A DNA stretch of 64,000 nt from Escherichia phage UGJNEcP1 (OV754623); one strand, 5' to 3'; positions 135 through 15,799 are shown, counted from the stretch's first letter. The notes: generated from the sequence alone by a model not told the origin. Numbers and translations are program-made.

Positions 135-1094
135 TTATGATTTTAATGCATTCATTGCATTAAAAAGTTTAGAATACTGCAACTGGAGATTCGTTACAAC
201 ACTTTGAGCATCACGAAGCTTAGCTTGTGCTTTGTCAAGTTCAACAGACAGTTGGTCCATAGTGGCCTTGATTTGATTGTAATGGTAATCTTCGGCCGGA
301 AGAAGGTCATTAGAAACATTTAGTTTTACTGCAGACAGTTTGCACACATTTGGCAAACCTTTAAACATTGATTTACCCGAAGTAGAATAAGCACTTAGGA
401 CTTCGGCCTGTTCAATTGGGGTCCCAGTAAGCGATGCTTCAAACGTTGCATTTTCCTTTTTAAGATTTTTATAATATTCAGAGTCTTTGTGCCACCATGG
501 CGCAGGAACCTTTTTACCAATAGATACACGAGCCTGGATAGCGATATTGCCCTTATTCTTGATAGGGTCGATAATATTAAGCTCACGAGAATAAATCGCT
601 TTAATCTGGTGGATATTATCACCTAAAACTTCCAACGCTTGGTGGAATACACGAGCAACGTTATCATTCTTAGGATTATATGTAAGAGTGAACTCGTTCT
701 CACTGATAACCATGATTTCTAACTTATCGTAAGTGTACTTAAGATGCTTCATGTTAATTGATTGAGGACGAATACGAGAAGCAATGGCCATCAGATTGTT
801 AAGGTTATTTCGGAACTGTTTAGCGAAATATTGTCCTTCACCGCCGATACAAAAATTACGAAGTTTCTGTTTGGCTAATAAACGGCTGAACTCACCATTT
901 TTAATGAACTCTTTAACGGGTGTGTTAGTAATGCATTCAAATTGAGTAAACATACGAGAATTAATCCCATAATATGAACAGATTTCCTCAATCTCTTCAG
1001 GAGTCTTTACAGGCATACGGATAGGATTAGGTCCTGGGGTATATGCGTTCGAGGTAAATTCTTTGATAAGTTCTCTACGTGTAATAAAAGCCAT
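135..1094 (-). CDS. hypothetical protein (319 aa) with C-terminal coiled-coil-like region
   Basis: Long ORF on the dominant coding strand; own upstream promoter-like repeat at 1121-1150; no family recognised. Confidence 0.6.
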   Translation of the reverse strand: MAFITRRELIKEFTSNAYTPGPNPIRMPVKTPEEIEEICSYYGINSRMFTQFECITNTPVKEFIKNGEFSRLLAKQKLRNFCIGGEGQYFAKQFRNNLNNLMAIASRIRPQSINMKHLKYTYDKLEIMVISENEFTLTYNPKNDNVARVFHQALEVLGDNIHQIKAIYSRELNIIDPIKNKGNIAIQARVSIGKKVPAPWWHKDSEYYKNLKKENATFEASLTGTPIEQAEVLSAYSTSGKSMFKGLPNVCKLSAVKLNVSNDLLPAEDYHYNQIKATMDQLSVELDKAQAKLRDAQSVVTNLQLQYSKLFNAMNALKS

Positions 1095-1120
1095 TTTATA
1101 TTCCTCATGTTGAAAAATTT

Positions 1121-1150
1121 ATTATACTCCAACCATCCTTGGTTGTACAT
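1121..1150 (-). promoter_or_regulatory. early promoter repeat copy (variant -35)
   Basis: 28-nt identity with 101-128. Confidence 0.5.
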
Positions 1151-2145
1151 CATTCCTTAAGAAGTTTTACTACTTGAATAAGATTAGCTCGTTCTGTTTT
1201 ATTTTTACCATTTAAGCCTGCTAATCGTGAGATTTCACCATCAGTCTGTTGAATAGTTACATTAAGTTCGTTAATCAAAGCTTCAAAGTATTTGATTTGC
1301 TCAGCATGTTTTGATTCAAATTTCTGAACCGGAATAACGTCTTGGTTTAGTTCATCAATAAGGTCTTTAAGAGCATCTTCTTGGTTGATATCATATTCAA
1401 CTTCTTTTATTTCTTCAACGAGCTCATCTTTATATCTAACGTCTTTTAGTCCTGGGGTCGGGCCTAAAATCTCTTCTTTAAGAGTACAAACATATCCAAT
1501 ACGATATCCAGTGCCGTCTCGCTTGATATCAACTTCGTCGATAAATCCACAATGTTTGAGGCCAGAGCCGATTAGGTCAAAATATCCTTGACGACGTCCT
1601 TCAAACGTTACACGAACTACTAAGACAGTTTTACCTGCAACCTTTTGAAGCTCACATTTATAAAAGTCAGTTGAACCTGAATAACGTGGATGAGTTTTAA
1701 AGTTCATCTGACGATCTAAGCCCATTTGTAAACGTGCTGATACGGCCAGAAAACGTGTTTGGTTCTCGTTAAGATGAGCAACAATCCATTTCAAAGGCAT
1801 TTTACCCTGTTCACGACCGAACAAATCAGTATGTCCTAGATTACGCAGGATGTTGTTAGAGTTAATCATCGACAGAACGTTAAGTTTATTCAGCGCGCTG
1901 AAGATTCCATCAGCCATTGATTTTCCGTAGCCTTTACACGCTTTAATAAGCGCTCGCGGTAGATTAGTATAGATTTCAGACGGCATATGAAAATCAAATT
2001 TACTAACCAGTAATTGATGAACTTGGATAGCAATTCGTTCATAATTAAGTGCTCTGCGATCATTATGGTCTTTAAACCACACTTTAATCTGTGAAGCACA
2101 TAAACCGTTAATTTCATGTTTTACCGCATCAGATGTAATGCTCAT
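1150..2145 (-). CDS. hypothetical protein (331 aa)
   Basis: Long ORF, compact spacing with neighbours; no family recognised. Confidence 0.6.
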   Translation of the reverse strand: MSITSDAVKHEINGLCASQIKVWFKDHNDRRALNYERIAIQVHQLLVSKFDFHMPSEIYTNLPRALIKACKGYGKSMADGIFSALNKLNVLSMINSNNILRNLGHTDLFGREQGKMPLKWIVAHLNENQTRFLAVSARLQMGLDRQMNFKTHPRYSGSTDFYKCELQKVAGKTVLVVRVTFEGRRQGYFDLIGSGLKHCGFIDEVDIKRDGTGYRIGYVCTLKEEILGPTPGLKDVRYKDELVEEIKEVEYDINQEDALKDLIDELNQDVIPVQKFESKHAEQIKYFEALINELNVTIQQTDGEISRLAGLNGKNKTERANLIQVVKLLKE

Positions 2146-2207
2146 AACTATTTCCTCAGATTGAATTGGAACTCAAAACCATTATAACCCGTCCTTGGGT
2201 AAAGCGT

Positions 2208-2735
2208 TTATGCGTGAACCGTCTTTAAACGTTCTTCAAATTTCCGAAGAGTACTAATACGTTCTGCTTTCTGTTTTGTATAGTTTGCAATACGTTCTGA
2301 AGTGAGAGCGTATCGTTCGTTTACTGATTCTTTCATGAAGTCAGGGATTTCACGAGAAGCTTTAATTTCATCAAACTTATCGAGTACTGCCTGGTCTTCA
2401 GCGATTAAATTTTCGTACATCTCGATATCTTTCTTGATAAACTCGATATCTTCCTGGGTTACTTTGGATAAACGAGATGCTTTATCCTTTTTGTACTGCT
2501 CGTTAGTTTCACGAGACCAGAATAATGTACGTTTTTTGTTAGTGTTTTTGTAGACTTCCACAATTCCAACTGAATCGATGATAACAATCCAATTCCAGCG
2601 AGATTTGAAAATCTGACCTCCGTCTACGGTAATCTCGTTACCATAAGCAACGTCATTAAAGAACTTGCTTTGTGCTTCAGATTTAAATTTACCGTCGTTA
2701 TAATTTACCAGGTTGAAAATATCTTTAGCGTTCAT
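2208..2735 (-). CDS. hypothetical protein (175 aa)
   Basis: ORF with GGAGG Shine-Dalgarno and PeSL-type promoter immediately upstream (2754-2791). Confidence 0.6.
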   Translation of the reverse strand: MNAKDIFNLVNYNDGKFKSEAQSKFFNDVAYGNEITVDGGQIFKSRWNWIVIIDSVGIVEVYKNTNKKRTLFWSRETNEQYKKDKASRLSKVTQEDIEFIKKDIEMYENLIAEDQAVLDKFDEIKASREIPDFMKESVNERYALTSERIANYTKQKAERISTLRKFEERLKTVHA

Positions 2736-2753
2736 GTTTTACCTCCAGTAGTT

Positions 2754-2791
2754 GATAGGTCTATAATAACATAATCATAGACCTTGTAAAC
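2754..2791 (-). promoter_or_regulatory. PeSL-type early promoter (GTTTAC-17-TATTAT) with stem AGGTCTAT/ATAGACCT
   Basis: Consensus hexamers and inverted repeat around the -10. Confidence 0.65.
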
Positions 2792-2793
2792 AA

Positions 2794-3081
2794 CTAAAAG
2801 AAACTTTTTTCGGTATTTTTTCCACTGAACCAAACAGACTTCGGGATTTTTTGTAATTTTTCAGATTTAAGTTTCTCTTCCTGTTCTTTCTTATATACAC
2901 CCTTGTCGTACTGGAGCATCTCTATGGCATTCTTTTGCAAATGATCTAAGGTAATTAAGGCTTTAGTTTTTCCTTTCAAGGAAGAGTCCTGGCGAACCTC
3001 CTCGCTATATTGCATTGTAGAACTAACCATACGATGAGCATAGAGTTCAACGGCGGCTTTAATTTTTTGCATAAAATCCAT
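2794..3081 (-). CDS. hypothetical protein (95 aa)
   Basis: ORF with AAGAGGA Shine-Dalgarno 7 nt upstream of ATG. Confidence 0.55.
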   Translation of the reverse strand: MDFMQKIKAAVELYAHRMVSSTMQYSEEVRQDSSLKGKTKALITLDHLQKNAIEMLQYDKGVYKKEQEEKLKSEKLQKIPKSVWFSGKNTEKSFF

Positions 3082-3219
3082 AACATATCCTCTTTGATTT
3101 GTACATCATTATTTTTAAATATTTCTATGCCCTCAGTAGGTTCCTGGTGTCCTTCTTTGAGGTAAGCCATATGATTATTCATCTTTATGGCTTTTGTTAC
3201 CTCAGAACTTCCTATAAGC

Positions 3220-4221
3220 TTATTTCAGTAAAGTTACTTCAGAGATTTCCTCCCAACCATCTTTATCAGTTGAAATAAAATCTGCTACATAAAGAGCCGT
3301 ACGTAATGATACATTGCGAAGACGAGATACGTTAGCCTTCATCCAGGACAATGCTTTATACGTTTCTGCATCCGTCAGACCACGTTTCTGCATCATGTCA
3401 GTAGATAATATTACATCTTCAACTCGAACCATAATCTCTTCATTAGAGTGTACTCCAAGATCGAGATACACTGAACGAGATACTAAAGCTTGAAGGTGTG
3501 GAGCAAGTTTAGAACCGCGTTCTAACTCTTTATCGATATCAACGTTTGTAATGAAAACGATAGTACCTTCAAACTCAAATTCTTTATCAATACCCTTATC
3601 CTCGAGATAAGATGACGCAGTGCTCCAACAAACTTTGCGTTTATCTCCGGTATCTAATGCTGCTTTAAGAAGGTTCAGGATGTCCATATCTGAGAATACG
3701 TCAACGTCATCGATTAAGAGAACGCTGTCTGCATCACGGTTGAGCCAAAGTTGTTCGTAAAGGCCAATGCCAGAGATTTTACCATTAATGCTTTTGTATT
3801 TGATGAAACCATTATCATTAGCATTATTAAGTGCTTTATCCAGAGAATACGTCTTACCAATACCAGCTGCACCTGAAATAATGAGTGAACGAATTTTGCC
3901 ATCGATAATGCCATTCGTCATCATGTTCATTACTTTAAAGCGTTTGTTGATACGAGTTTTCATATCTTCAGTGCTTTCAACAACTGCAACCGGTGATGTC
4001 TCAACTCCTTCCATTACGATGTCTGATTTGAAGACCCATACTCCACGTTCAGAACCATCAATCATAACGAAAATTTTACCATCACCTAAGTGGGAACATT
4101 CAGGATTAAGCTTTGCTGGGAACCAGGTCTTTGTGGCGACATAAGAACCAGAGATTTCGTTATTACGATAGATACCTTTTTTGATTTGAACGTTGAACAT
4201 TTTATTCTCCAATTTACTCAT
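3220..4221 (-). CDS. P-loop NTPase (Walker A GAAGIGKT, Walker B VLLIDDVD), AAA-like
   Basis: Walker A and B motifs read directly from the translation; promoter 4230-4267 upstream. Confidence 0.6.
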   Translation of the reverse strand: MSKLENKMFNVQIKKGIYRNNEISGSYVATKTWFPAKLNPECSHLGDGKIFVMIDGSERGVWVFKSDIVMEGVETSPVAVVESTEDMKTRINKRFKVMNMMTNGIIDGKIRSLIISGAAGIGKTYSLDKALNNANDNGFIKYKSINGKISGIGLYEQLWLNRDADSVLLIDDVDVFSDMDILNLLKAALDTGDKRKVCWSTASSYLEDKGIDKEFEFEGTIVFITNVDIDKELERGSKLAPHLQALVSRSVYLDLGVHSNEEIMVRVEDVILSTDMMQKRGLTDAETYKALSWMKANVSRLRNVSLRTALYVADFISTDKDGWEEISEVTLLK

Positions 4222-4229
4222 TTCGTTTC

Positions 4230-4267
4230 GATAGGTCTATAATAACATATCCTAAAAGCATGTACAC
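4230..4267 (-). promoter_or_regulatory. PeSL-type early promoter (variant -35)
   Basis: gataggtctataataacat... cassette shared with other copies. Confidence 0.5.
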
Positions 4268-4280
4268 TACTTTTTAAAAA

Positions 4281-4314
4281 TATTTTAACCCCCTAAAGGG
4301 ACCCGAAGGTCCCC
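4281..4314 (-). terminator. hairpin terminator (GGGACC-TTCG-GGTCCC)
   Basis: GC stem-loop downstream of 4319..4585; related copy at 22835-22858. Confidence 0.45.
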
Positions 4315-4318
4315 ACAT

Positions 4319-4585
4319 TTACTTATCGCACTTAGCAACATAATTAGGCATATCACAGAATACGGAGCGAGTAACTACTCGGCCCTTTGACCATGCTTCA
4401 GTTGCTTGTCCGGCCGTGCTATTAATATAGCTTGATTTAATGTTCTCAATACCCTGAGAATGTGATGCATTTACCGAACCATTGGAAGGCCCGGAAGACT
4501 GGTTACCACCATCTCCTGCACCTGTGTTAGCACCAACAGAGAATGCCATCATTACTGCGAATAAACCAATTACTAATTTTTTCAT
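4319..4585 (-). CDS. small secreted protein (88 aa, N-terminal signal peptide, C-terminal Cys pair)
   Basis: MKKLVIGLFAVMMAFSVGA hydrophobic leader; followed by hairpin terminator. Confidence 0.55.
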   Translation of the reverse strand: MKKLVIGLFAVMMAFSVGANTGAGDGGNQSSGPSNGSVNASHSQGIENIKSSYINSTAGQATEAWSKGRVVTRSVFCDMPNYVAKCDK

Positions 4586-4617
4586 ATTTACCTCAAGTTA
4601 AGGGGTTATTTATCTAC

Positions 4618-5607
4618 TTATTTATAGTAAGAATTATGATTTTCGAGATAGACTTGTTCAAGGAAGTCATCCCAGAAACTCATATCTACTTTTTGTTGCA
4701 TACCGTTCTTGGCAGCTTGTTCTGACGCATGTTCAACTTGGACAACGATATCTTCTAGGAATTCTTGTACAGTTTTAAACGTATGTTTACCAAGCTTAAC
4801 ATTGAGAATAAATGGAGCATCCTGAAGTGGGTAAACCAGGTCGCCGGTTTTGTAAATTTCCAATAATTGAAGTCCACCACGACATGCATGACTCAATGCT
4901 TTCCAGTCAATACCTTCGTTGGCTTCTGCCTTACGAGCACGTTCGCCATAGTTCTCTTCTAGTTTAACCAGGATGGCATTAAACTCTTTATTGGTTAACG
5001 TGTCTTGGAATTTACGGTCTAACAGATTATAGAATGTTTGCTTACCTGTTTTCTCGTTTTCGGTTTCAACCCATGAAGCAAATTCACCTACAGGCAGAAC
5101 ATTCTTCATATGTGATAAACGAATTACTGCACCGTTATCAAAGTATTGTCCCCATTCATTAGAACGTTTAAGGGCTTGACGAAGAACAGCCAGTCGAGAA
5201 CCCTTGACACCGTATTTAGAAGCTTGCTTACGGACATACCCTAAATAAGATTTCATGTTAGTGGTATAGAAACGAGACCTGTTATCTTGAATATACTTCC
5301 ATACATCAGGCAAATCAGATTTAACTACTAGACTTGGTGGAGTGTGAAGCATATCTAATGCGACGGTTTCACCATCTGCAGCTAGTTTAAAGAAATATTT
5401 GAGACTATACAACTCGTGGTCCACGTCGTCTTTTGTGTTCTTAGAAGATGTGTTATTCGTATTCTTGCTCATGTGTTCTTTAACGTTACCGGTCAAGATA
5501 TCACGAGCATGAGGGACATAAATTTCTTTAAAATCGACGTCAGATTCAGGAGTAGACGTTCCATAAAGGTGGCTACCAAAGTAGCCTTTCATAATTGTTT
5601 TCATCAT
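4618..5607 (-). CDS. predicted nucleotidyltransferase (pol-beta superfamily-like GS...D.D motif)
   Basis: N-terminal GSHLYGTSTPESDVDF matches the GS-x(9-13)-D-x-D nucleotidyltransferase signature. Confidence 0.55.
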   Translation of the reverse strand: MMKTIMKGYFGSHLYGTSTPESDVDFKEIYVPHARDILTGNVKEHMSKNTNNTSSKNTKDDVDHELYSLKYFFKLAADGETVALDMLHTPPSLVVKSDLPDVWKYIQDNRSRFYTTNMKSYLGYVRKQASKYGVKGSRLAVLRQALKRSNEWGQYFDNGAVIRLSHMKNVLPVGEFASWVETENEKTGKQTFYNLLDRKFQDTLTNKEFNAILVKLEENYGERARKAEANEGIDWKALSHACRGGLQLLEIYKTGDLVYPLQDAPFILNVKLGKHTFKTVQEFLEDIVVQVEHASEQAAKNGMQQKVDMSFWDDFLEQVYLENHNSYYK

Positions 5608-7775: not shown

Positions 7776-7988
7776 TTAATTTTGGCCAGTATTTATTTTT
7801 CGCCTTTGGACGGCCTTAACATCTGTGAGGTATTTTTCCAGCTTGCGCTTGCGTGTATAATCAGCTTTAGAACCAGTTTGACGGATATCCTCGTTTAAAT
7901 GAGAAATAGAATGTCCTAATTCTCTTCGGATTTCATCCAATTGGGTTACAGTAAGATTACGAAGTTGTCTTTCGTTTAATTGCTGCAT
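7776..7988 (-). CDS. hypothetical protein (70 aa), rI-adjacent
   Basis: ORF between tk and rI. Confidence 0.5.
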
Positions 7989-8015
7989 ATATACCTCTTG
8001 GTTAGATATTAGTAT

Positions 8016-8597
8016 TTATAACAACCCTGTCAAATCATTCCAATGCTTCCGGCATAATGACACATATCTATCGGTATCACCAATTTCAATTTGACTGCCA
8101 TCTGTAATTGGAAGTCCGTCTTCCGTGACTCTAGCTACCATTGTGGCCTTTTTACCACAATGACAGACACCTTTAAGTTCAACAAGCTTATCGGCGATAG
8201 CCATTAATGCTTGAGAACCTTCAAATAGATTACCTTTAAAATCTGTTCGTAGTCCATATGCCATTACCGGCACATTGTATACGTCAACAATACGACTAAG
8301 TTGATACACCTTTTCAGTAGTTAAGAACTGAGCTTCGTCAACAAATACACAGTGAATATCCTTTTGTGCTGCAGCCCATTTATAGAATTCAAAGATATCC
8401 ATGTCTTTTGTAATTATATTGGCATCCTGACGAATACCAATACGAGAGACTATTTCACCTTTTGAATCACGAGTATCAATAGCCGGTTTAAGAACTAATA
8501 CACCCATGCCACGTTCTTTATAGTTATGTGCGGCAGTAAGTAATGAAGCAGACTTACCAGCGTTCATAGCGGCATAGGTAAAAATTAAACTAGCCAT
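8016..8597 (-). CDS. tk: thymidine kinase
   Basis: P-loop AMNAGKS, 193 aa, C-terminal Zn-ribbon Cys pairs (CHCGKK...C); strong recalled identity to T4 Tk. Confidence 0.9.
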   Translation of the reverse strand: MASLIFTYAAMNAGKSASLLTAAHNYKERGMGVLVLKPAIDTRDSKGEIVSRIGIRQDANIITKDMDIFEFYKWAAAQKDIHCVFVDEAQFLTTEKVYQLSRIVDVYNVPVMAYGLRTDFKGNLFEGSQALMAIADKLVELKGVCHCGKKATMVARVTEDGLPITDGSQIEIGDTDRYVSLCRKHWNDLTGLL

Positions 8598-8606
8598 AAG
8601 AGTCCC

Positions 8607-8789
8607 TTATAGTGAATTCACGTAGTCAATGAGTTCTTGTTCTTTCCTGTCAAATGATTCCATCAATGCTTGATATTCTTCATCTGTTAAAGGAGCATAT
8701 TCATCGTACGCATTGGTGGCTGCTTGCTCATCCAATAGGTCATGGATAAGTTCGAACAGTTTAGTTTTCTCTTCTTTAGTCAATTTCAT
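8607..8789 (-). CDS. hypothetical protein (60 aa)
   Basis: Small acidic ORF; ATGA overlap. Confidence 0.45.
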   Translation of the reverse strand: MKLTKEEKTKLFELIHDLLDEQAATNAYDEYAPLTDEEYQALMESFDRKEQELIDYVNSL

Positions 8790-9013
8790 TTAGGTTCACC
8801 TTCTTTAACGAAATCTGGGTAAGGGTAAAATCCTGAGTAAAACCCTTCACCTTTATGATTGCTACAACCTTTGTTCGAACAGTAACACCAATAATCAAAA
8901 TCACAAGCCATTTCGTCATTGCATAAAGCAAAAACTACAGGCCATTCGCATTTTTCGCATTTAGCACCTGTAAGAATTTTTGTTTGACTCATAGCCATGT
9001 CACCTTTAAGCAA
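8786..9013 (-). CDS. Cys-rich small protein (putative zinc-binding)
   Basis: CEKCEW...CNDEMAC...CYCSNKGC pattern. Confidence 0.5.
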   Translation of the reverse strand: MLKGDMAMSQTKILTGAKCEKCEWPVVFALCNDEMACDFDYWCYCSNKGCSNHKGEGFYSGFYPYPDFVKEGEPK

Positions 9014-9216
9014 TATTCTTCTACATGTTGTTTACGGCCTTTCTTATCAATAAAGGTATATTCAACGAATGTTCCGATGTAGTCTTTATCTACGTCATGT
9101 GGACTATTAATTGGACATTTGGTACGACAAATGCGTTCCCATTGACGAATAATTACTGCCTTATTCTTTGGATCATATGGATGTGGATAATGTATATTCA
9201 TAATAACGGTTCCCAA
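8989..9216 (-). CDS. hypothetical protein (75 aa)
   Basis: ORF on coding strand. Confidence 0.45.
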   Translation of the reverse strand: MGTVIMNIHYPHPYDPKNKAVIIRQWERICRTKCPINSPHDVDKDYIGTFVEYTFIDKKGRKQHVEEYCLKVTWL

Positions 9217-9695
9217 TCAACAATCACAATTTCCAGTTTAGTGGAATACGTATCTAAAATCTCTTCGATGACGTCCCAGTTTCCACCACCGATACCTGCA
9301 CCAATTCTTGGCATATAAATTACAGGCTTTGTTATCTTATTCTTTCCGAATTCATTTAATTCTGTTATACAATTCATTAAAGCAGAGTACTCAAAATTAG
9401 GTCCGGGCTCAAACTGCGTATAAAGATTAAAGCAATAAGCTTTATGGGTCTTAAAATATTTTTCATAAACCGAATAAGTCCCGAGTTTAGACTCGTCTCC
9501 GAATTCGGTTTGAAGTTTATCGGCTTCCAGAATTTTTGGATAAGCCTTTGCTAATTGTCCTGCCACACCGGCGCCCATTGTATGAAAACAATTACACCCA
9601 TGAGCAATATTATTACCTTTAGAAAACAGGGCGACAATATCGCCCTTGATATAGTTTTTAATCACTTGCTGCAAGTCCTCTAGTATAAGAGTCAA
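9198..9695 (-). CDS. macro-domain protein (ADP-ribose binding/processing fold)
   Basis: HGCNCFHTMGAGVAGQLAKAYP and IYMPRIGAGIGGGNW resemble the two glycine-rich loops of macro domains. Confidence 0.55.
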   Translation of the reverse strand: MTLILEDLQQVIKNYIKGDIVALFSKGNNIAHGCNCFHTMGAGVAGQLAKAYPKILEADKLQTEFGDESKLGTYSVYEKYFKTHKAYCFNLYTQFEPGPNFEYSALMNCITELNEFGKNKITKPVIYMPRIGAGIGGGNWDVIEEILDTYSTKLEIVIVDWEPLL

Positions 9696-10005
9696 CTAGA
9701 CGGTCCACCATAGAATTGCATGCTGCCTTATCTTTAGGTTCCGCCACCGAGCATTCTAATATTTGCCATTTTTTATAGTATCTTTTAATTAAGGTAGACG
9801 CCTTGAACCTACTAGACGCCCCATCTTTTTCTCCGTCTTTATACGCATATAACAATTTTTGTGAAAAATCTACTTTACACTCTTGACTTTTACCACAGTA
9901 ATCAGACGCCGTTCTGTTTGTATACTCCGTTACATCAGTATATGTAGTATTAGCAAGAGCGTTAAATGAAACCAAGCCAACTATTAAAGCCAACATTTTG
10001 GTCAT
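9658..10005 (-). CDS. secreted small protein (115 aa, signal peptide)
   Basis: MTKMLALIVGLVSFNALA leader. Confidence 0.5.
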   Translation of the reverse strand: MTKMLALIVGLVSFNALANTTYTDVTEYTNRTASDYCGKSQECKVDFSQKLLYAYKDGEKDGASSRFKASTLIKRYYKKWQILECSVAEPKDKAACNSMVDRLVDSYTRGLAASD

Positions 10006-10544
10006 TCTTTTATTTCCAGTAGTTTATTTGATTTAAGGTAATTAGCCTTTTCTAGGACTTCAGAAGCATATTTACTTCCAGCACTTGTCTTCCATCCCGC
10101 ATTATATGAGGATATAGCTTTTCTTATATCCCCGTTATGTATATTTAACCAATAAGAAAATTCGATATAAGCCCATCTGGCTGAATTAGACCGCTTAGAT
10201 AGCATTTTCTTAATTTGGGCATCAGTCATATTATAACCAAGCTGGTTAATTCTTGCCCTCATTGTTGGTAGATAATTTTGGAACATTCCATACGCATGGT
10301 GACCTTTCTTATCTTTAAGATTAATACCGGCAGATGATTCTTGCCATAGTATTGCGGCCATTATGTATCCAAGTCCTTTCTTATGCATATTTTCATGCGT
10401 TTTAAATTTTCCATCCTTAGAAAACTGTTCCCCAAACTGATAAGCATAATTCAAGTTATCGAGTTGGACATTACTAAAAGTATGCTCGGAGCTATGTGCT
10501 GATAATGAAAGAGCAAATAGACCAGCGAGTAGTGCTTTTCTCAT
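10002..10544 (-). CDS. secreted lytic transglycosylase-like protein (SLT-like)
   Basis: Signal peptide plus E-S...YGMFQ...YNAG spacing typical of SLT/lysozyme-like folds. Confidence 0.5.
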   Translation of the reverse strand: MRKALLAGLFALSLSAHSSEHTFSNVQLDNLNYAYQFGEQFSKDGKFKTHENMHKKGLGYIMAAILWQESSAGINLKDKKGHHAYGMFQNYLPTMRARINQLGYNMTDAQIKKMLSKRSNSARWAYIEFSYWLNIHNGDIRKAISSYNAGWKTSAGSKYASEVLEKANYLKSNKLLEIKE

Positions 10545-10552
10545 GTTTACCT

Positions 10553-11011
10553 CTAGATTTTAATCACTGCTTTAGAAGCTTTTCCTGGTAGTCGTTTATT
10601 GTTAATAATAGCCATTCTGCATTGAAGAGTCTTCATTTTGAATGCTGGATTTTCGCGACAAACTGTAAGTCCTAACCAAAGATTTCCATCAGTTATTTCT
10701 AAACGGCCTGGGCGATATTCGACACCTTCGACAAAATCTTCATCAACATCTGGACGTGCCGGCATTGATAAAAATTCTGCAACTTCTTTAACATGATTTT
10801 TTACTTTATGAAATAATTCAAAAACGTAATTCTCATCTATTTCTCTCTGGATGGCACGATCTAAGAGATGTTGAGAATACTTGATATGAAAGCCTGGTAG
10901 TCCAAGAGACTTTGCAGCATCTTTTATACTGGCATTTATTTTGCGGAACTCCGTTTCAAAGATTCGACGGAGTTTATTACGGCGGATAAAAACGTCTGAA
11001 TTGATAGTCAT
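10553..11011 (-). CDS. regB: RegB site-specific endoribonuclease
   Basis: 152 aa; MTINSDVFIRRNKLRR...GRLEITDGNLWLG...RLPGKASKAVIK matches T4 RegB as recalled. Confidence 0.8.
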   Translation of the reverse strand: MTINSDVFIRRNKLRRIFETEFRKINASIKDAAKSLGLPGFHIKYSQHLLDRAIQREIDENYVFELFHKVKNHVKEVAEFLSMPARPDVDEDFVEGVEYRPGRLEITDGNLWLGLTVCRENPAFKMKTLQCRMAIINNKRLPGKASKAVIKI

Positions 11012-11030
11012 TTTGATTTCTCCTCTAGTT

Positions 11031-11068
11031 GACAGGTCTATAGTAACACAACTAGAGGAGAAGTAAAC
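11031..11068 (-). promoter_or_regulatory. PeSL-type early promoter upstream of regB with SD-complementary spacer
   Basis: ACTAGAGGAG at 11051-11060 is the inverted repeat of the regB ribosome-binding region at 11021-11030. Confidence 0.6.
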
Positions 11069-11367
11069 TACTCTTTGAAAGGAATTAACTTTTTAACTGC
11101 TTTAGATACTTCGTCACGAACCTGGTGGAAGTTCTTGAGCTGTTCAAGGCGTTGTTCGTAATACGCAATCTCATCTTCTTCAAGACAATCGTCAGCGTCT
11201 TCTTTCAGATATGCCTTGTACTCATTAAAGAGGGCCCATAGGCGATTCTCAAAGTCATCAAGGCTTTGAATTTTCTTGTGCTTCGGAACAAGGCCAAAAG
11301 GATTGCTTTCAGTTATGCGTCGAGATGCTTCATAATGAGTTCCAAAGCCTGATAGGATTTGAGCCAT
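11068..11367 (-). CDS. hypothetical protein (~100 aa)
   Basis: ORF; start placed at MAQIL to give ATGA-type junction. Confidence 0.45.
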
Positions 11368-11612
11368 TAGTATTTTTCCTCTGGTTGAAATACCGCACGA
11401 CAAGCCCACATACTAGCTTCCTTTAGGCGTTCTTTAGCACAGTTCAATTGGGACAAAGCCGTCAGAGCTTCAGGAGTATTTGCTGATAATGCTTCTTCTG
11501 CCAGGGCGTCTAGAATAAGTCCTAAACGAACTTCGGCATCTTTAATAGCGTTCACTTTACCGATTTTATCATCGGTATGCGGCTTGTAGCCTTTAATATC
11601 TTCAATCGACAT
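11367..11612 (-). CDS. hypothetical protein (~81 aa)
   Basis: Internal Met start ([10 protein letters not shown]) avoids overlap with upstream ORF. Confidence 0.4.
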
Positions 11613-11826
11613 AAGGAATTTCCTCATCAGTGGCAAGGTCATATTCGACCAATTGGATAGGCTCATTAATACCATATCCACGTACAGTGATATCAGTTGT
11701 CGGATAGTTTCCAGTAATATCACCCATTCTAAATGCTTCAATGAATGATTGCTCGCCTGAGCAACTAAACCAGGCGGCAAAACATTTTAAAACATCTTCA
11801 GACCCTTCTATAATCAATTTAGCCAT
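11602..11826 (-). CDS. hypothetical protein (74 aa)
   Basis: ORF with ATGA overlap to the GrcA-like gene. Confidence 0.45.
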   Translation of the reverse strand: MAKLIIEGSEDVLKCFAAWFSCSGEQSFIEAFRMGDITGNYPTTDITVRGYGINEPIQLVEYDLATDEEIPYVD

Positions 11827-12188
11827 TATAGACTCTCAGTAAAGGTACGAGCGATAACGTCGCGCTGCTGTTCCGGAGTCAGAGAGTTAAAGCGAACTGC
11901 ATAACCGGATACACGGATGGTCAGCTGCGGATATTTTTCTGGATGCTTAACTGCATCTTCCAGAGTTTCGCGACGCAGAACGTTAACGTTCAGGTGTTGA
12001 CCACCTTCAATTTTAACTTTAGGTTGATGTTCAATTTCAATTTCACGGGCATTCAAACCGTAGAAAATTTCCGGGTCTACAATAGCGTCTTCTTTAAAAG
12101 TCTTAGAGACAATAATCCGGGCTTGAGTACCGTCTTCAAAATAAATAGTGCCTTTGTGTTCACCTTCAAGAATTTGATATGCTTTCAT
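11826..12188 (-). CDS. autonomous glycyl-radical cofactor (GrcA/YfiD-like)
   Basis: C-terminal [25 protein letters not shown] glycyl-radical motif; 3' half of the gene is markedly GC-richer than phage background. Confidence 0.8.
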
Positions 12189-12194
12189 ATAACC

Positions 12195-12503
12195 TCAATT
12201 AGAAAATAAATTTATCCAAGATTTTTCTTTAATCAAAAATGGGTCGGAATTAAACGCCATTAAACTTTGAGTGATTAATCCTTTAAATGGCCCATCAATA
12301 AATTCCATTTTGAAATGTGGAATACTAGTCATCAACCGTGCATTAGGAGCAGTACAAAGAACCTGCTGCCCTGCAAACGGTCCTTTAGTCAAACGATAAC
12401 GTTTAGGTTTAAAATGATAAATCTCGTAATTTTCTACAAGAGCCCTTTTATTGCATACTGGGCTGTTATAACAATACTCAAAAACTTCAATAGTGGTCAT
12501 CAT
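12195..12503 (-). CDS. hypothetical protein (~102 aa)
   Basis: ATG overlapping upstream stop (ATGATGA at 12497-12503). Confidence 0.45.
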   Translation of the reverse strand: MMTTIEVFEYCYNSPVCNKRALVENYEIYHFKPKRYRLTKGPFAGQQVLCTAPNARLMTSIPHFKMEFIDGPFKGLITQSLMAFNSDPFLIKEKSWINLFSN

Positions 12504-13039
12504 TGCATTCCAATCACAAAAAATTGAGGACGAGCAATACCACCGATGCAATATTTGCTTTTGCAACAGTGTTGGACTGTTTTAATATGGATGTCGTAAA
12601 TCTTATCCATATCAGGAGCTTTAATAGGCTCGTCAATTATGTACAGAATACGAGAAAGCGTTAATCCACGGAATTTATGTCCTTCATTACCAATAAAACT
12701 ACGGACAGAATCAGTAAATAAACGGAATCTAATATCATCGCTAGAATAACGAGAAAATTCTTTTTTAATGTTGCCAACAGAAATTTTAGCATAAGCTGAA
12801 GTATTAGAAAGAACAATAACTGTTCCACCATCATACAGCCAATTAACAGCAAAATTAGTTACTGCGGTCGATTTACCAGATTGCCTGCCGCCGTCTAAAC
12901 GAAGTGTACAGTACTGCTTGAGTACGTCTTCAAATGGTGGGGCATAACCGTTCTTACAAATTTCTTCTACTCTAGCATCAGAATGGTGTGTAAAAGCATT
13001 CATCAGGGATAGATAAGGTCCGGTTAAAAATGTTCTCAT
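12500..13039 (-). CDS. small P-loop NTPase (Walker A GGRQSGKST, Walker B ILYIIDEP)
   Basis: Motifs read from translation; preceded by an unusual GC-rich ~170-nt leader. Confidence 0.55.
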   Translation of the reverse strand: MRTFLTGPYLSLMNAFTHHSDARVEEICKNGYAPPFEDVLKQYCTLRLDGGRQSGKSTAVTNFAVNWLYDGGTVIVLSNTSAYAKISVGNIKKEFSRYSSDDIRFRLFTDSVRSFIGNEGHKFRGLTLSRILYIIDEPIKAPDMDKIYDIHIKTVQHCCKSKYCIGGIARPQFFVIGMQ

Positions 13040-13212
13040 TTAGTTTCTCTTTTAGGTTGGGCCATTCCGTGGCACATGTTAGGTCCTTCGACTCGCTATG
13101 TAAACCCATTACCGCACTTGGGCTCGACCTTATTACAGGTTGGAAAAGGTACATCACTCAGAGGACTCGACGTTCATGAGGAGAGGTTGCGTTTCCCTTT
13201 ATTAGGCAAGAA

Positions 13213-13542
13213 TTATACTCTAGGCTTTTGAGCTTGTTTGGTATTGGATTCCCATGCAGCTTTGGTAATTTTGTTAGCGGCATAACCAAAGGCACTAGAT
13301 AGAACACCTTTAGAGTTGAATACATCCAATCCAATAAGTACACCGGCTGTGTTAAATTTAGGAGCAAAGTACGCATTAGTTTTAGAAAGAGCTTTTTTCA
13401 ATTCAGGGTCTTGAACCAAACCATCAAAAACGCCTTTACTATTTACTTTATATGTTACTTTGGGATTTTTACCTTCTTCGATAGCAGCTTTCTGTTCCGC
13501 AGATAATGTAACTTCAGTGATAAACTCTTGATACGTTTTCAT
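13213..13542 (-). CDS. internal-protein-like (capsid-targeting leader MKTYQEFITE)
   Basis: N-terminus matches the T4 internal-protein capsid targeting sequence ending in the prohead-protease site I/L-x-E. Confidence 0.7.
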   Translation of the reverse strand: MKTYQEFITEVTLSAEQKAAIEEGKNPKVTYKVNSKGVFDGLVQDPELKKALSKTNAYFAPKFNTAGVLIGLDVFNSKGVLSSAFGYAANKITKAAWESNTKQAQKPRV

Positions 13543-15340: not shown

Positions 15341-15799
15341 TTATAGGAGGGTAGTGAGCACCTTATATAATGATTTGCCCATTACATATTCCCATTGAGA
15401 AGGTTTAATTAAAGCGAATGCATCAAATTCAGGAATCTGTCGTCCGTCTGGGAATGTATGATAGGAATTACAAACACTGTTTCTGAATTGCTCGTGCTCT
15501 ACAGGGATGGTATATTGGAACAGATGAATATTCTTATTGTCTGAGTAATGATGTTCACCTAGGTCTTTCAGGAAGGCAGGGTCATATTGTGTAAACCCAG
15601 TTTCTTCTTCACATTCGCGAATAGCGGCTTCAATAGGAGATTCACCAGGTTCGACACGTCCTTTAGGAATATCCCACCGATGAGCTAATGCACCTTTAGG
15701 ACGAGAACCAGTTACACGCCCCATGAATAATTCTTTATCTTCGGTAAGGAAAATAATACCGGCTGATAGTTCTTTCACTTTATTTTTCTTACTCATCAT
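15341..15799 (-). CDS. nudE: Nudix hydrolase
   Basis: Nudix box GRVEPGESPIEAAIRECEEETG; position adjacent to e. Confidence 0.85.
   Translation of the reverse strand: MMSKKNKVKELSAGIIFLTEDKELFMGRVTGSRPKGALAHRWDIPKGRVEPGESPIEAAIRECEEETGFTQYDPAFLKDLGEHHYSDNKNIHLFQYTIPVEHEQFRNSVCNSYHTFPDGRQIPEFDAFALIKPSQWEYVMGKSLYKVLTTLL

Follow-up and report, generated by a model that had tools for sequence, protein, structure and literature searches.

What does the small glycine-rich protein encoded between tk and regB of Escherichia phage UGJNEcP1 (OV754623) do, and could it serve the phage against a defence of its host? The question was raised by an earlier note on the 64,000-nucleotide stretch of DNA analyzed here (hereafter, the window), which placed a macrodomain protein at 9198-9695 in the tk-regB interval. 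This open reading frame (ORF) exists: it lies on the minus strand, counts 165 aa from a TTG codon, and contains both of the peptides quoted in the note, HGCNCFHTMGAGVAGQLAKAYP and IYMPRIGAGIGGGNW. It stands in an operon context, among the same-strand genes that run unbroken from tk to regB (Table 1). The window belongs to an RB69-like T-even phage of the genus Mosigvirus and differs from Escherichia phage UGJNEcP2 (OV877511) by one mismatch in 49,663 bases. The latter record annotates the gene as a CDS at 9198..9665 with the label ‘phosphatase’, and the same gene appears in other records as ‘macro domain protein’, ‘Poa1p-like family protein’, or ‘hypothetical protein’.

The end of the gene at 9198 was placed correctly in the earlier note, and its sole error concerns the start, which should be 9665 instead of 9695. 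Translation most likely begins with the GTG codon at 9665, giving a product of 155 aa, because this codon occupies the position of the T4 tk.4 ATG, the alignment with other, more distant homologues begins at residue 11 of the 165-aa ORF, and the stretch 9666..9695 lies within the vs coding sequence. This upstream extension is probably excluded from the macrodomain protein, and the 165-aa, TTG-initiated ORF was dropped in favour of the GTG start, position 9695 being only the mechanical limit of the frame. The GAGGA motif ahead of the GTG is a putative ribosome-binding site, and in T4 the tk.4 ATG is also preceded by GAGGA at a similar distance. At the other end of the gene, the ATGA shared with the tk.3-like neighbour suggests that the two genes may be translationally coupled. 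A promoter scan of 7900..13400 returned 15 sites, with 17 expected by chance.

Table 1. The macrodomain gene of the window, its predicted functional residues, and its genomic surroundings.
Feature	Position	Strand	Basis and remarks
Predicted macrodomain CDS, identified as T4 tk.4/adfM ortholog	9198..9665	-	155 aa plus stop; annotation, Pfam Macro, AlphaFold2 model
GTG, most likely start codon	9663..9665	-	Gapless M1-to-M1 alignment with T4 Tk.4; equals T4 tk.4 ATG position
GAGGA, Shine-Dalgarno-like motif	9676..9680	-	Read from the sequence; 10 nt spacing to GTG
In-frame upstream extension of the 165-aa ORF	9666..9695	-	Within vs coding sequence
ATGA overlap	9198..9201	-	tk.4 stop TGA shares bases with the start codon (ATG) of the tk.3-like neighbour
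tk.3-like gene, downstream neighbour	8989..9201	-	DUF7202 match; annotation
vs (valyl-tRNA synthetase modifier), upstream neighbour	9658..10005	-	Annotation and ORF list; final 8 nt overlap the macrodomain gene start
Thymidine kinase, tk	8016..8597	-	ORF list, annotation
regB	10553..11011	-	ORF list, annotation
Glycine-rich loop 1, predicted ADP-ribose-binding loop, residues 30-36 (MGAGVAG)	9558..9578	-	Aligns with TARG1 MGAGIA and DarG MGKGVA
Conserved H22 and N25, just upstream of loop 1	9591..9602	-	Codon positions
Glycine-rich loop 2, predicted diphosphate-binding loop, residues 119-130 (PRIGAGIGGGNW)	9276..9311	-	Aligns with SCO6735, BT1257, and TARG1 loops
T83-Q84, Gln in the catalytic-Lys column	9414..9419	-	Profile-to-TARG1 alignment and MAFFT alignment; codons from the sequence

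Sequence profiles and structure prediction agree on the fold of the encoded protein. A search against Pfam Macro, which the earlier note had suggested as a check together with structure prediction, matched PF01661 at 29 bits (E=1.1e-6; profile positions 2-117 of 118), above the gathering cutoff of 22 bits. Searching the PDB with the protein sequence retrieved BT1257 (3e-11) and yeast Poa1p (1e-8), and also SCO6735, TARG1, and DarG. A profile of 66 homologues matched BT1257 at 2e-17, TARG1 at 1e-16, SCO6735 at 6e-15, Mycobacterium tuberculosis (Mtb) DarG at 2e-13, and Poa1p at 9e-13. The AlphaFold2 model, built with the 66-homologue alignment, reached a pLDDT of 95.7 and a pTM of 0.91 and displays, together with its Foldseek matches, the three-layer alpha/beta/alpha arrangement of macrodomains. 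Among the matches listed by Foldseek against the PDB, all were macrodomains or macrodomain-based designs, with TM-scores of up to 0.80, and those at the top were TARG1 (5.8e-10), Poa1p (2.1e-9), BT1257, DarG, and SCO6735, all of the TARG1/ALC1-like class. The best structural matches, human TARG1 (OARD1, PDB 4j5r) and yeast Poa1p (PDB 6lfq), each share about 24% identity with the window protein. With these matches to solved macrodomains, the macro fold claimed in the earlier note is established for the window protein, and the tk.4 product is identified, from profile and model, as a macrodomain protein.

The two glycine-rich loops are located where the earlier note had placed them, and both (MGAGVAG and PRIGAGIGGG) match the pocket loops of the solved macrodomains TARG1, DarG, BT1257, and SCO6735. 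Residues G31, G33, and A35 of loop 1 are invariant or near-invariant among the 66 homologues, as are P119, I121, G122, and G124 of loop 2, the latter four without exception. The counterparts of loop 2 read LPRIGCGLAGGTW in SCO6735, MPRIGCGLAGGKW in BT1257, and MPRIGCGLDRLQW in TARG1. ADP-ribose is predicted to bind, most likely, in the cleft formed by these two loops.

The comparison with phage T4 gives this macrodomain protein a name and a probable task. It is identical to T4 Tk.4 (NP_049723) at 131 of 155 positions (85%), with no gaps (E=1e-104), and the two phages share the gene order tk, three small ORFs (tk.1-tk.3 in T4), tk.4, vs, vs.1, and regB. In both, the gene fills the slot that separates tk.3 from vs and has the same orientation as these neighbours. 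Orthology and synteny are thereby established, and on these comparisons the window gene is the tk.4 ortholog, that is, the Mosigvirus copy of a gene that T4 carries in the sister genus Tequatrovirus, with conserved residues including N25 and Q84 in common. The two versions differ by 24 substitutions, by the start codon (ATG in T4, GTG in the window), and by the length of the overlap with vs (4 nt and 8 nt, respectively). The T4 record still describes tk.4, in a legacy note, as ‘phosphatase; contains A1pp phosphatase motif’.

The gene is thus already known as T4 Tk.4/AdfM, and it is an ordinary conserved counter-defence gene. According to a November 2025 preprint (bioRxiv 10.1101/2025.11.20.689424), tk.4 was the single significant hit when a T4 transposon library (HIDEN-SEQ) was grown on a DarTG2-expressing host, the gene being non-essential on plain K-12 and its depletion specific to DarTG2. 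A clean T4 tk.4 knockout was sensitive to DarTG2, and this evidence is genetic and concerns T4 only. The DarTG2 assays required special conditions (30 °C, M9 glucose). The gene was named adfM, ‘anti-DarT factor macrodomain’, by its authors, who proposed that the protein removes ADP-ribose from DNA. Because the knockout of this 85%-identical, syntenic ortholog is DarTG2-sensitive, the most likely job of the window protein would be to remove the ADP-ribose added by DarT2 to thymidines of the phage DNA. The T4 genetics therefore lend support to the idea in the earlier note that a host defence based on ADP-ribosylation is reversed. Other phage anti-DarT factors are also described, such as AdfN (T4 gene 30.3, NADAR), a separate companion enzyme that counters DarTG1/DarT1 and not DarTG2, and AdfA and AdfB, which are described as small DarT-neutralising proteins and not as enzymes. 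The window gene would illustrate how a T-even phage can undo the ADP-ribosylation of its DNA by DarT2, beside the action of AdfN against DarT1.

The antitoxin of DarTG2 itself, DarG (Thermus aquaticus and M. tuberculosis; PDB 5m31, 5m3i), shares the macrodomain fold of the window protein. The substrate proposed for the two is alike, ADP-ribose linked to thymidine in single-stranded DNA, and both counter DarT2, in the case of AdfM according to the T4 genetics. However, filing the window protein as DarG was ruled out by its score, a missing C-terminal domain, a missing catalytic lysine, and the lack of a DarT neighbour. It scored 32.6 bits with the DarG equivalog model NCBIfam NF048014, whose cutoff is 250, and 34 bits with the PADLOC DarG model, compared with 133 bits for the AdfM of phage PhiKZ. 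The C-terminal DarT-binding domain of DarG is absent from this 155-aa protein, which matches model positions 4-146 of 338. The catalytic lysine (K80 in Taq DarG) is also absent, with Gln84 in its column. In the 64-kb window, tblastn with a single DarT2 query, which very divergent DarTs could escape, gave no match at E<=1.

The PhiKZ protein in question, gp104, has also been called AdfM (Cell Rep 2026, PMC13309987) and is likewise a stand-alone phage macrodomain that counters DarTG2. However, its BLASTP match to the window protein is a local one of 23 residues only. It is genuinely of the DarG type, matching Mtb DarG at E=9e-25, and keeps the catalytic lysine in an ‘FPTK’ motif, whereas the window protein has a Gln. 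Neither the close sequence relation nor the catalytic lysine that would mark a PhiKZ-type AdfM was found in the window protein. The name AdfM, given by two unrelated papers, is thus one name for two distantly related lineages. Assignment to PHROGs did not help to discriminate, as phrog_335 takes Tk.4, Adpp (a related phage phosphatase considered below), and PhiKZ AdfM alike. The acidity of the macrodomain protein (pI 5.6) was considered as an argument against DNA binding and dropped, since PhiKZ AdfM, whose action on DNA is proven, has an even lower pI (5.05).

The substitution in the lysine column bears directly on the chemistry to be expected. Q84 aligns with K84 of TARG1 and K80 of DarG, both in an HMM alignment to TARG1 and when TARG1, PhiKZ gp104, and two DarG macrodomains were aligned with MAFFT; in the PhiKZ protein, the column holds the Lys of the FPTK motif. 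The Thr before this column is shared. This Gln is conserved in 66 of 66 profile homologues, in 120 of 120 listed database homologues, and in all of the 80 bacterial homologues retrieved from genomes. The second residue of the TARG1 catalytic dyad, D125, corresponds to G126, and the dyad K84, D125 accordingly reads Q84, G126 in the window protein. Of 119 aligned homologues, 118 have N25, which is also near-invariant in the 66-sequence alignment. The residues of the active site are in this way established for the window protein.

A comparable active site is found in SCO6735 of Streptomyces coelicolor (PDB 5e3b), a stand-alone TARG1/ALC1-class macrodomain that hydrolyses thymidine-linked ADP-ribose on DNA (PMC9411070). 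Its likeness to the window protein extends over the fold (Foldseek E=2.3e-6, TM 0.70-0.73) and the profile match (E=6e-15), and includes a Gln where DarG has K80 and TARG1 has K84, an Asn that is conserved (N27, N25 in the window protein), and a PRIGxGxxGG loop. SCO6735 is reported to be without the DarG/TARG1 catalytic residues and to have Gln85 at the equivalent position; the Q85A and Q85E substitutions abolish the hydrolysis of thymidine-linked ADP-ribose and N27S nearly abolishes it, and the proposed mechanism is water-mediated, with Gln85, held by Asn27, positioning the distal ribose (PMC9411070). In the window protein, N25, G122, and G124 correspond to N27, G126, and G128 of SCO6735, the phosphate-loop part by direct alignment to 5e3b. 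The equivalence of Q84 and Q85 holds by transitivity, combining our own alignment to TARG1 K84 with the published structural equivalence (PMC9411070); a query with the C-terminal half of the window protein aligned with 5e3b over the glycine loop only, with the Q85 region outside the alignment. The two proteins differ in that they share about 22% identity and that one is a cellular and the other a phage protein. In addition, the DNA-contacting Lys34 of SCO6735 may be without a counterpart, to judge from an indirect comparison in which GAG of the window protein stands opposite GKG of DarG and BT1257. Because Q84 stands in the lysine column and N25, G122, and G124 match, we expect SCO6735-type, lysine-independent chemistry for the window protein, and the active site of the T-even AdfM reads as a Gln-type site like that of SCO6735, not as a DarG-like one.

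Taken together, the product of the window gene is likely to be the AdfM of Mosigvirus, a stand-alone macrodomain enzyme of 155 aa that would reverse the thymidine ADP-ribosylation of phage DNA by DarT2. Located within the same-strand run that includes tk, vs, and regB, the gene would be expressed before replication, as in T4. Host DarT2 would ADP-ribosylate thymidines of single-stranded phage DNA, and the cleft between the two glycine-rich loops of AdfM would most likely take up the DNA-linked ADP-ribose. The enzyme would then hydrolyse the C1''-N3(thymine) bond, yielding normal DNA and free ADP-ribose, and replication could go on. There being no catalytic lysine, Gln84, held by Asn25, would take its place in a Gln-positioned, water-mediated route such as that proposed for SCO6735. 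A precedent for this activity is PhiKZ gp104, which strips DarT2-added ADP-ribose from DNA in vitro (PMC13309987), and thymidine-linked ADP-ribose is also cleaved by TARG1 (PMC8501950). For the Tk.4-type family, we infer that ADP-ribose is removed from DNA enzymatically. Several observations count against this reading, namely that the window protein has neither the catalytic Lys found in DarG and TARG1 nor the Asp125 of TARG1, that its scores with DarG models are 33-34 bits against 133 for PhiKZ AdfM, and that a 37%-identical protein, Adpp of Vibrio phage Gary, is a proven ADP-ribose-1''-phosphate (ADPR-1''P) phosphatase, and that Tk.4 bears the ‘A1pp phosphatase motif’ label in the T4 record.

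Protection by AdfM need not be purely hydrolytic, because catalytically dead SCO6735 (Q85A), DarG (K80A), and TARG1 (K84A) inhibit DarT in vitro, SCO6735 most strongly (PMC9411070). That protection is mainly non-catalytic, with the DarT2 toxin bound or inhibited or the ADP-ribosylated sites shielded, would also have a parallel in AdfA and AdfB, which neutralise the DarT toxin and are not described as enzymes. However, phage and bacterial homologues alike conserve the entire ADP-ribose pocket and the Gln84/Asn25 pair with no or almost no variation, and the 80 bacterial homologues examined are without a DarT2 neighbour, a pattern that fits conserved catalysis and not the binding of one toxin. 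The DarT-binding C-terminal domain of DarG is, moreover, missing from the window protein, and we regard a mainly non-catalytic role as very improbable.

Hydrolysis could, in turn, be directed at other ADP-ribose marks. The relatives of the window protein are promiscuous: SCO6735 also strips ADP-ribose from PARP1 (PMC9411070), and uracil-linked ADP-ribose on RNA is removed by SCO6735, TARG1, and DarG (PMC13036486). The window protein might then reverse or tune modification by Alt, ModA, and ModB, the transferases of the phage itself, or remove marks such as Glu/Asp-linked ADP-ribose on proteins or uracil-linked ADP-ribose on RNA, with the reversal of DarT2 as a side activity. However, in the T4 transposon screen, tk.4 is dispensable on plain K-12, and its depletion is seen with DarTG2 specifically (bioRxiv 10.1101/2025.11.20.689424). 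The tuning of the phage's own ADP-ribosyltransferases, another proposal of the earlier note, finds no support in the present findings, and this group of roles is the least probable of those considered, a marginal candidate at best. The T4 transferases modify arginine, and no TARG1-class macrodomain is known to cleave arginine-linked ADP-ribose, both of which count against a role in reversing Alt or Mod.

A substrate other than DNA, as in the option of the earlier note that ADP-ribose-derived defence signals are degraded, is suggested more specifically by Adpp and is possible. This protein of Vibrio phage Gary (KNV71_gp137) converts ADPR-1''P to ADP-ribose (ADPR) in vitro and is required against aRES; in the NARP1-AP pathway, it lets NARP1 overcome this defence (bioRxiv 10.64898/2026.01.28.702374, January 2026 preprint). 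It belongs to the same sequence family as the window protein, with 37% identity (E=3e-23), the conserved Gln, and the motifs HxCNCF, MGxG, YxQ, and IGxGxxGG in common. Poa1p is, in addition, among the nearest solved relatives of the window protein, both by sequence (1e-8) and by fold, and the legacy ‘A1pp phosphatase motif’ note on the T4 record points the same way. The window protein could thus be chiefly an ADPR-1''P phosphatase like Adpp or Poa1p, acting on a small molecule (for example, the product of an aRES/RES-type NAD+ phosphorylase) and not on DNA. The proven substrate of Adpp is a small molecule. However, Adpp operates in an Adps-Adpp-Namat operon, flanked by Adps and Namat, whereas tk.3 and vs flank the window gene. 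No Adps or Namat was found in the 64-kb window, either by tblastn (no match at E<=1) or in the annotation, and tblastn for these NARP genes and for DarT alike found none. With neither Adps nor Namat in the window, production of ADPR would not lead back to NAD+. The phenotype of the T4 ortholog, at 85% identity, is specific to DarTG2 (bioRxiv 10.1101/2025.11.20.689424). The two proteins also differ beside the Gln: the YTQ of the window protein, found in 116 of 120 listed close homologues, is replaced in Adpp by YGQ with an insert of 7 residues. Because Adps and Namat are missing from the window and the ortholog has a DarTG2 phenotype, we treat dephosphorylation as a rival explanation or a secondary activity, and consider it unlikely as the chief function.

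The proposed reaction of AdfM on DNA and the phosphatase reaction may nevertheless be related. A second activity, as ADPR-1''P phosphatase, is possible for the window protein by analogy with Adpp, and a shared or dual activity would be chemically plausible because each of the two would remove a leaving group attached to C1'' of the distal ribose. The Thr or Gly before the Gln and the 7-residue insert may tune the preference for one substrate or the other.

Bacterial relatives indicate where such proteins may have come from. Identity is 35-45% for the 80 bacterial homologues. Around these 80 loci, tblastn with a single DarT2 query gave chance-level matches only (E>=1.1), and clustering of their neighbours revealed no conserved partner, only lineage-specific housekeeping genes. 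An origin as an ‘orphan antitoxin’ was rejected, there being no significant DarT2 match beside the 80 homologues with this one query. The bacterial homologues look like stand-alone enzymes, as SCO6735 is, and not like antitoxins. It can be proposed, tentatively and with more doubt than confidence, that the T-even AdfM and Adpp form one family of lysine-less, Gln-type ADP-ribose C1''-hydrolases, that the window protein is bifunctional, acting on thymine-N3-linked ADP-ribose on DNA and on ADPR-1''P, and that the family was recruited from stand-alone bacterial ‘guardian’ macrodomains (BT1257/SCO6735-like) that were never linked to DarT, and not from DarG.

To the known T4 gene, the present analysis adds a corrected start, an active site of the Gln type, a distinction between this protein and both DarG and PhiKZ AdfM, and the link to Adpp. 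Macrodomains are common in myoviruses (41%; PMC9503650), and among 50,697 phage records, tblastn found relatives of the window protein in about 2,800. Sorting these relatives into those acting on DNA and those acting on NAD+-breakdown products would improve the prediction of host range on hosts with DarTG, RES, or other NAD+-based defences. One such relative, the homologue in Vibrio phage VF16, which is 84% identical to Adpp, sits between genes annotated as ‘ribose-phosphate pyrophosphokinase’ and ‘nicotinamide phosphoribosyltransferase’, that is, in a NARP1 operon. The numbers of phage records matched by tblastn were similar with the two queries, at 2801 for the window protein and 2714 for the VF16 homologue.

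Homologues of the macrodomain protein were found within operons of the NARP1-AP type (Adps-macro-Namat) in Vibrio phages VF16 and Gary, the Gary homologue being the published ADPR-1''-phosphate phosphatase Adpp (bioRxiv 10.64898/2026.01.28.702374). Five of the bacterial loci that were fetched, represented by that of Ruegeria arenilitoris (L061), carry an ORF upstream of the gene for the macrodomain homologue, and its product looks like a putative NADAR domain, judging from the motif FSNF...W.TVEHFFQAQKF read by eye. If this assignment is correct, a guanine-ADPr hydrolase would be paired with a thymine-ADPr hydrolase in these bacterial loci, an arrangement that would mirror the phage pair of AdfN (NADAR, T4 gene 30.3) and AdfM (macrodomain, T4 Tk.4). 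Matches to the macrodomain with 28% identity on 235-kb plasmids of Bacillus thuringiensis (H83-H90) are located inside genes annotated as "SLOG family protein", a hint of fusions between macro and SLOG domains such as have been discussed in connection with the processing of ADP-ribose signals. Within the window itself, the Nudix hydrolase gene adjoining the endolysin gene is presumably, by its position, the counterpart of T4 e.1, which encodes NudE. The T4 enzyme hydrolyses ADP-ribose, and the window Nudix hydrolase could clear the free ADP-ribose set loose by the macrodomain.

Diversity was also observed in tk.4 among T-even phages, as a second allele class (protein P0007; phage matches H32-H35) is approximately 58% identical to the window protein. 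Residues 1-47 are 85% identical (40/47), and identity past residue 47 ranges from 25 to 75% by segment (50/108 overall). The conservation of the N-terminal 47 residues beside a divergent remainder suggests either that the gene is a mosaic or a recombinant, or that its C-terminal two thirds have been under diversifying selection. Counted from its 5' end, the macrodomain gene carries at 20-38 nt a terminator-like hairpin whose sequence is identical in T4 tk.4. The conserved KGDIVALF codons may give rise to this hairpin incidentally, or it may have a regulatory or attenuating function between vs and tk.4.

Features of the window and of the homologue loci (L061, L083 and L085)
Feature	Position	Strand or source	Description
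DUF7235 protein	135-1094	minus	
Protein without Pfam match	1150-2145	minus	
Protein without Pfam match	2208-2735	minus	
326-aa protein	3220-4200	minus	weakly AAA-like
RlaP-family nucleotidyltransferase	4618-5604	minus	RNA-repair Pol-beta-type
Terminator-like hairpin	9628-9646	minus	8-bp stem, 5 G-C pairs, 3-nt loop, T-rich run after
vs.1-position ORF	10002-10544	minus	180 aa
Nudix hydrolase	15341-15799	minus	Pfam NUDIX, 5e-16
ORF upstream of macrodomain homologue	L061:5444-5995	Ruegeria arenilitoris	ends 5 bases before homologue
Adps-macro-Namat operon	L083:3135-6152	Vibrio phage VF16	
Adps-macro-Namat operon	L085:2129-5159	Vibrio phage Gary	

Upstream of rI, a minus-strand block (135-5604) holds poorly annotated genes, among them the first five in the table. 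The ORF at the vs.1 position, which returned no match in a Pfam search at E<=0.001, is kept by T4 at the same place, between vs and regB.
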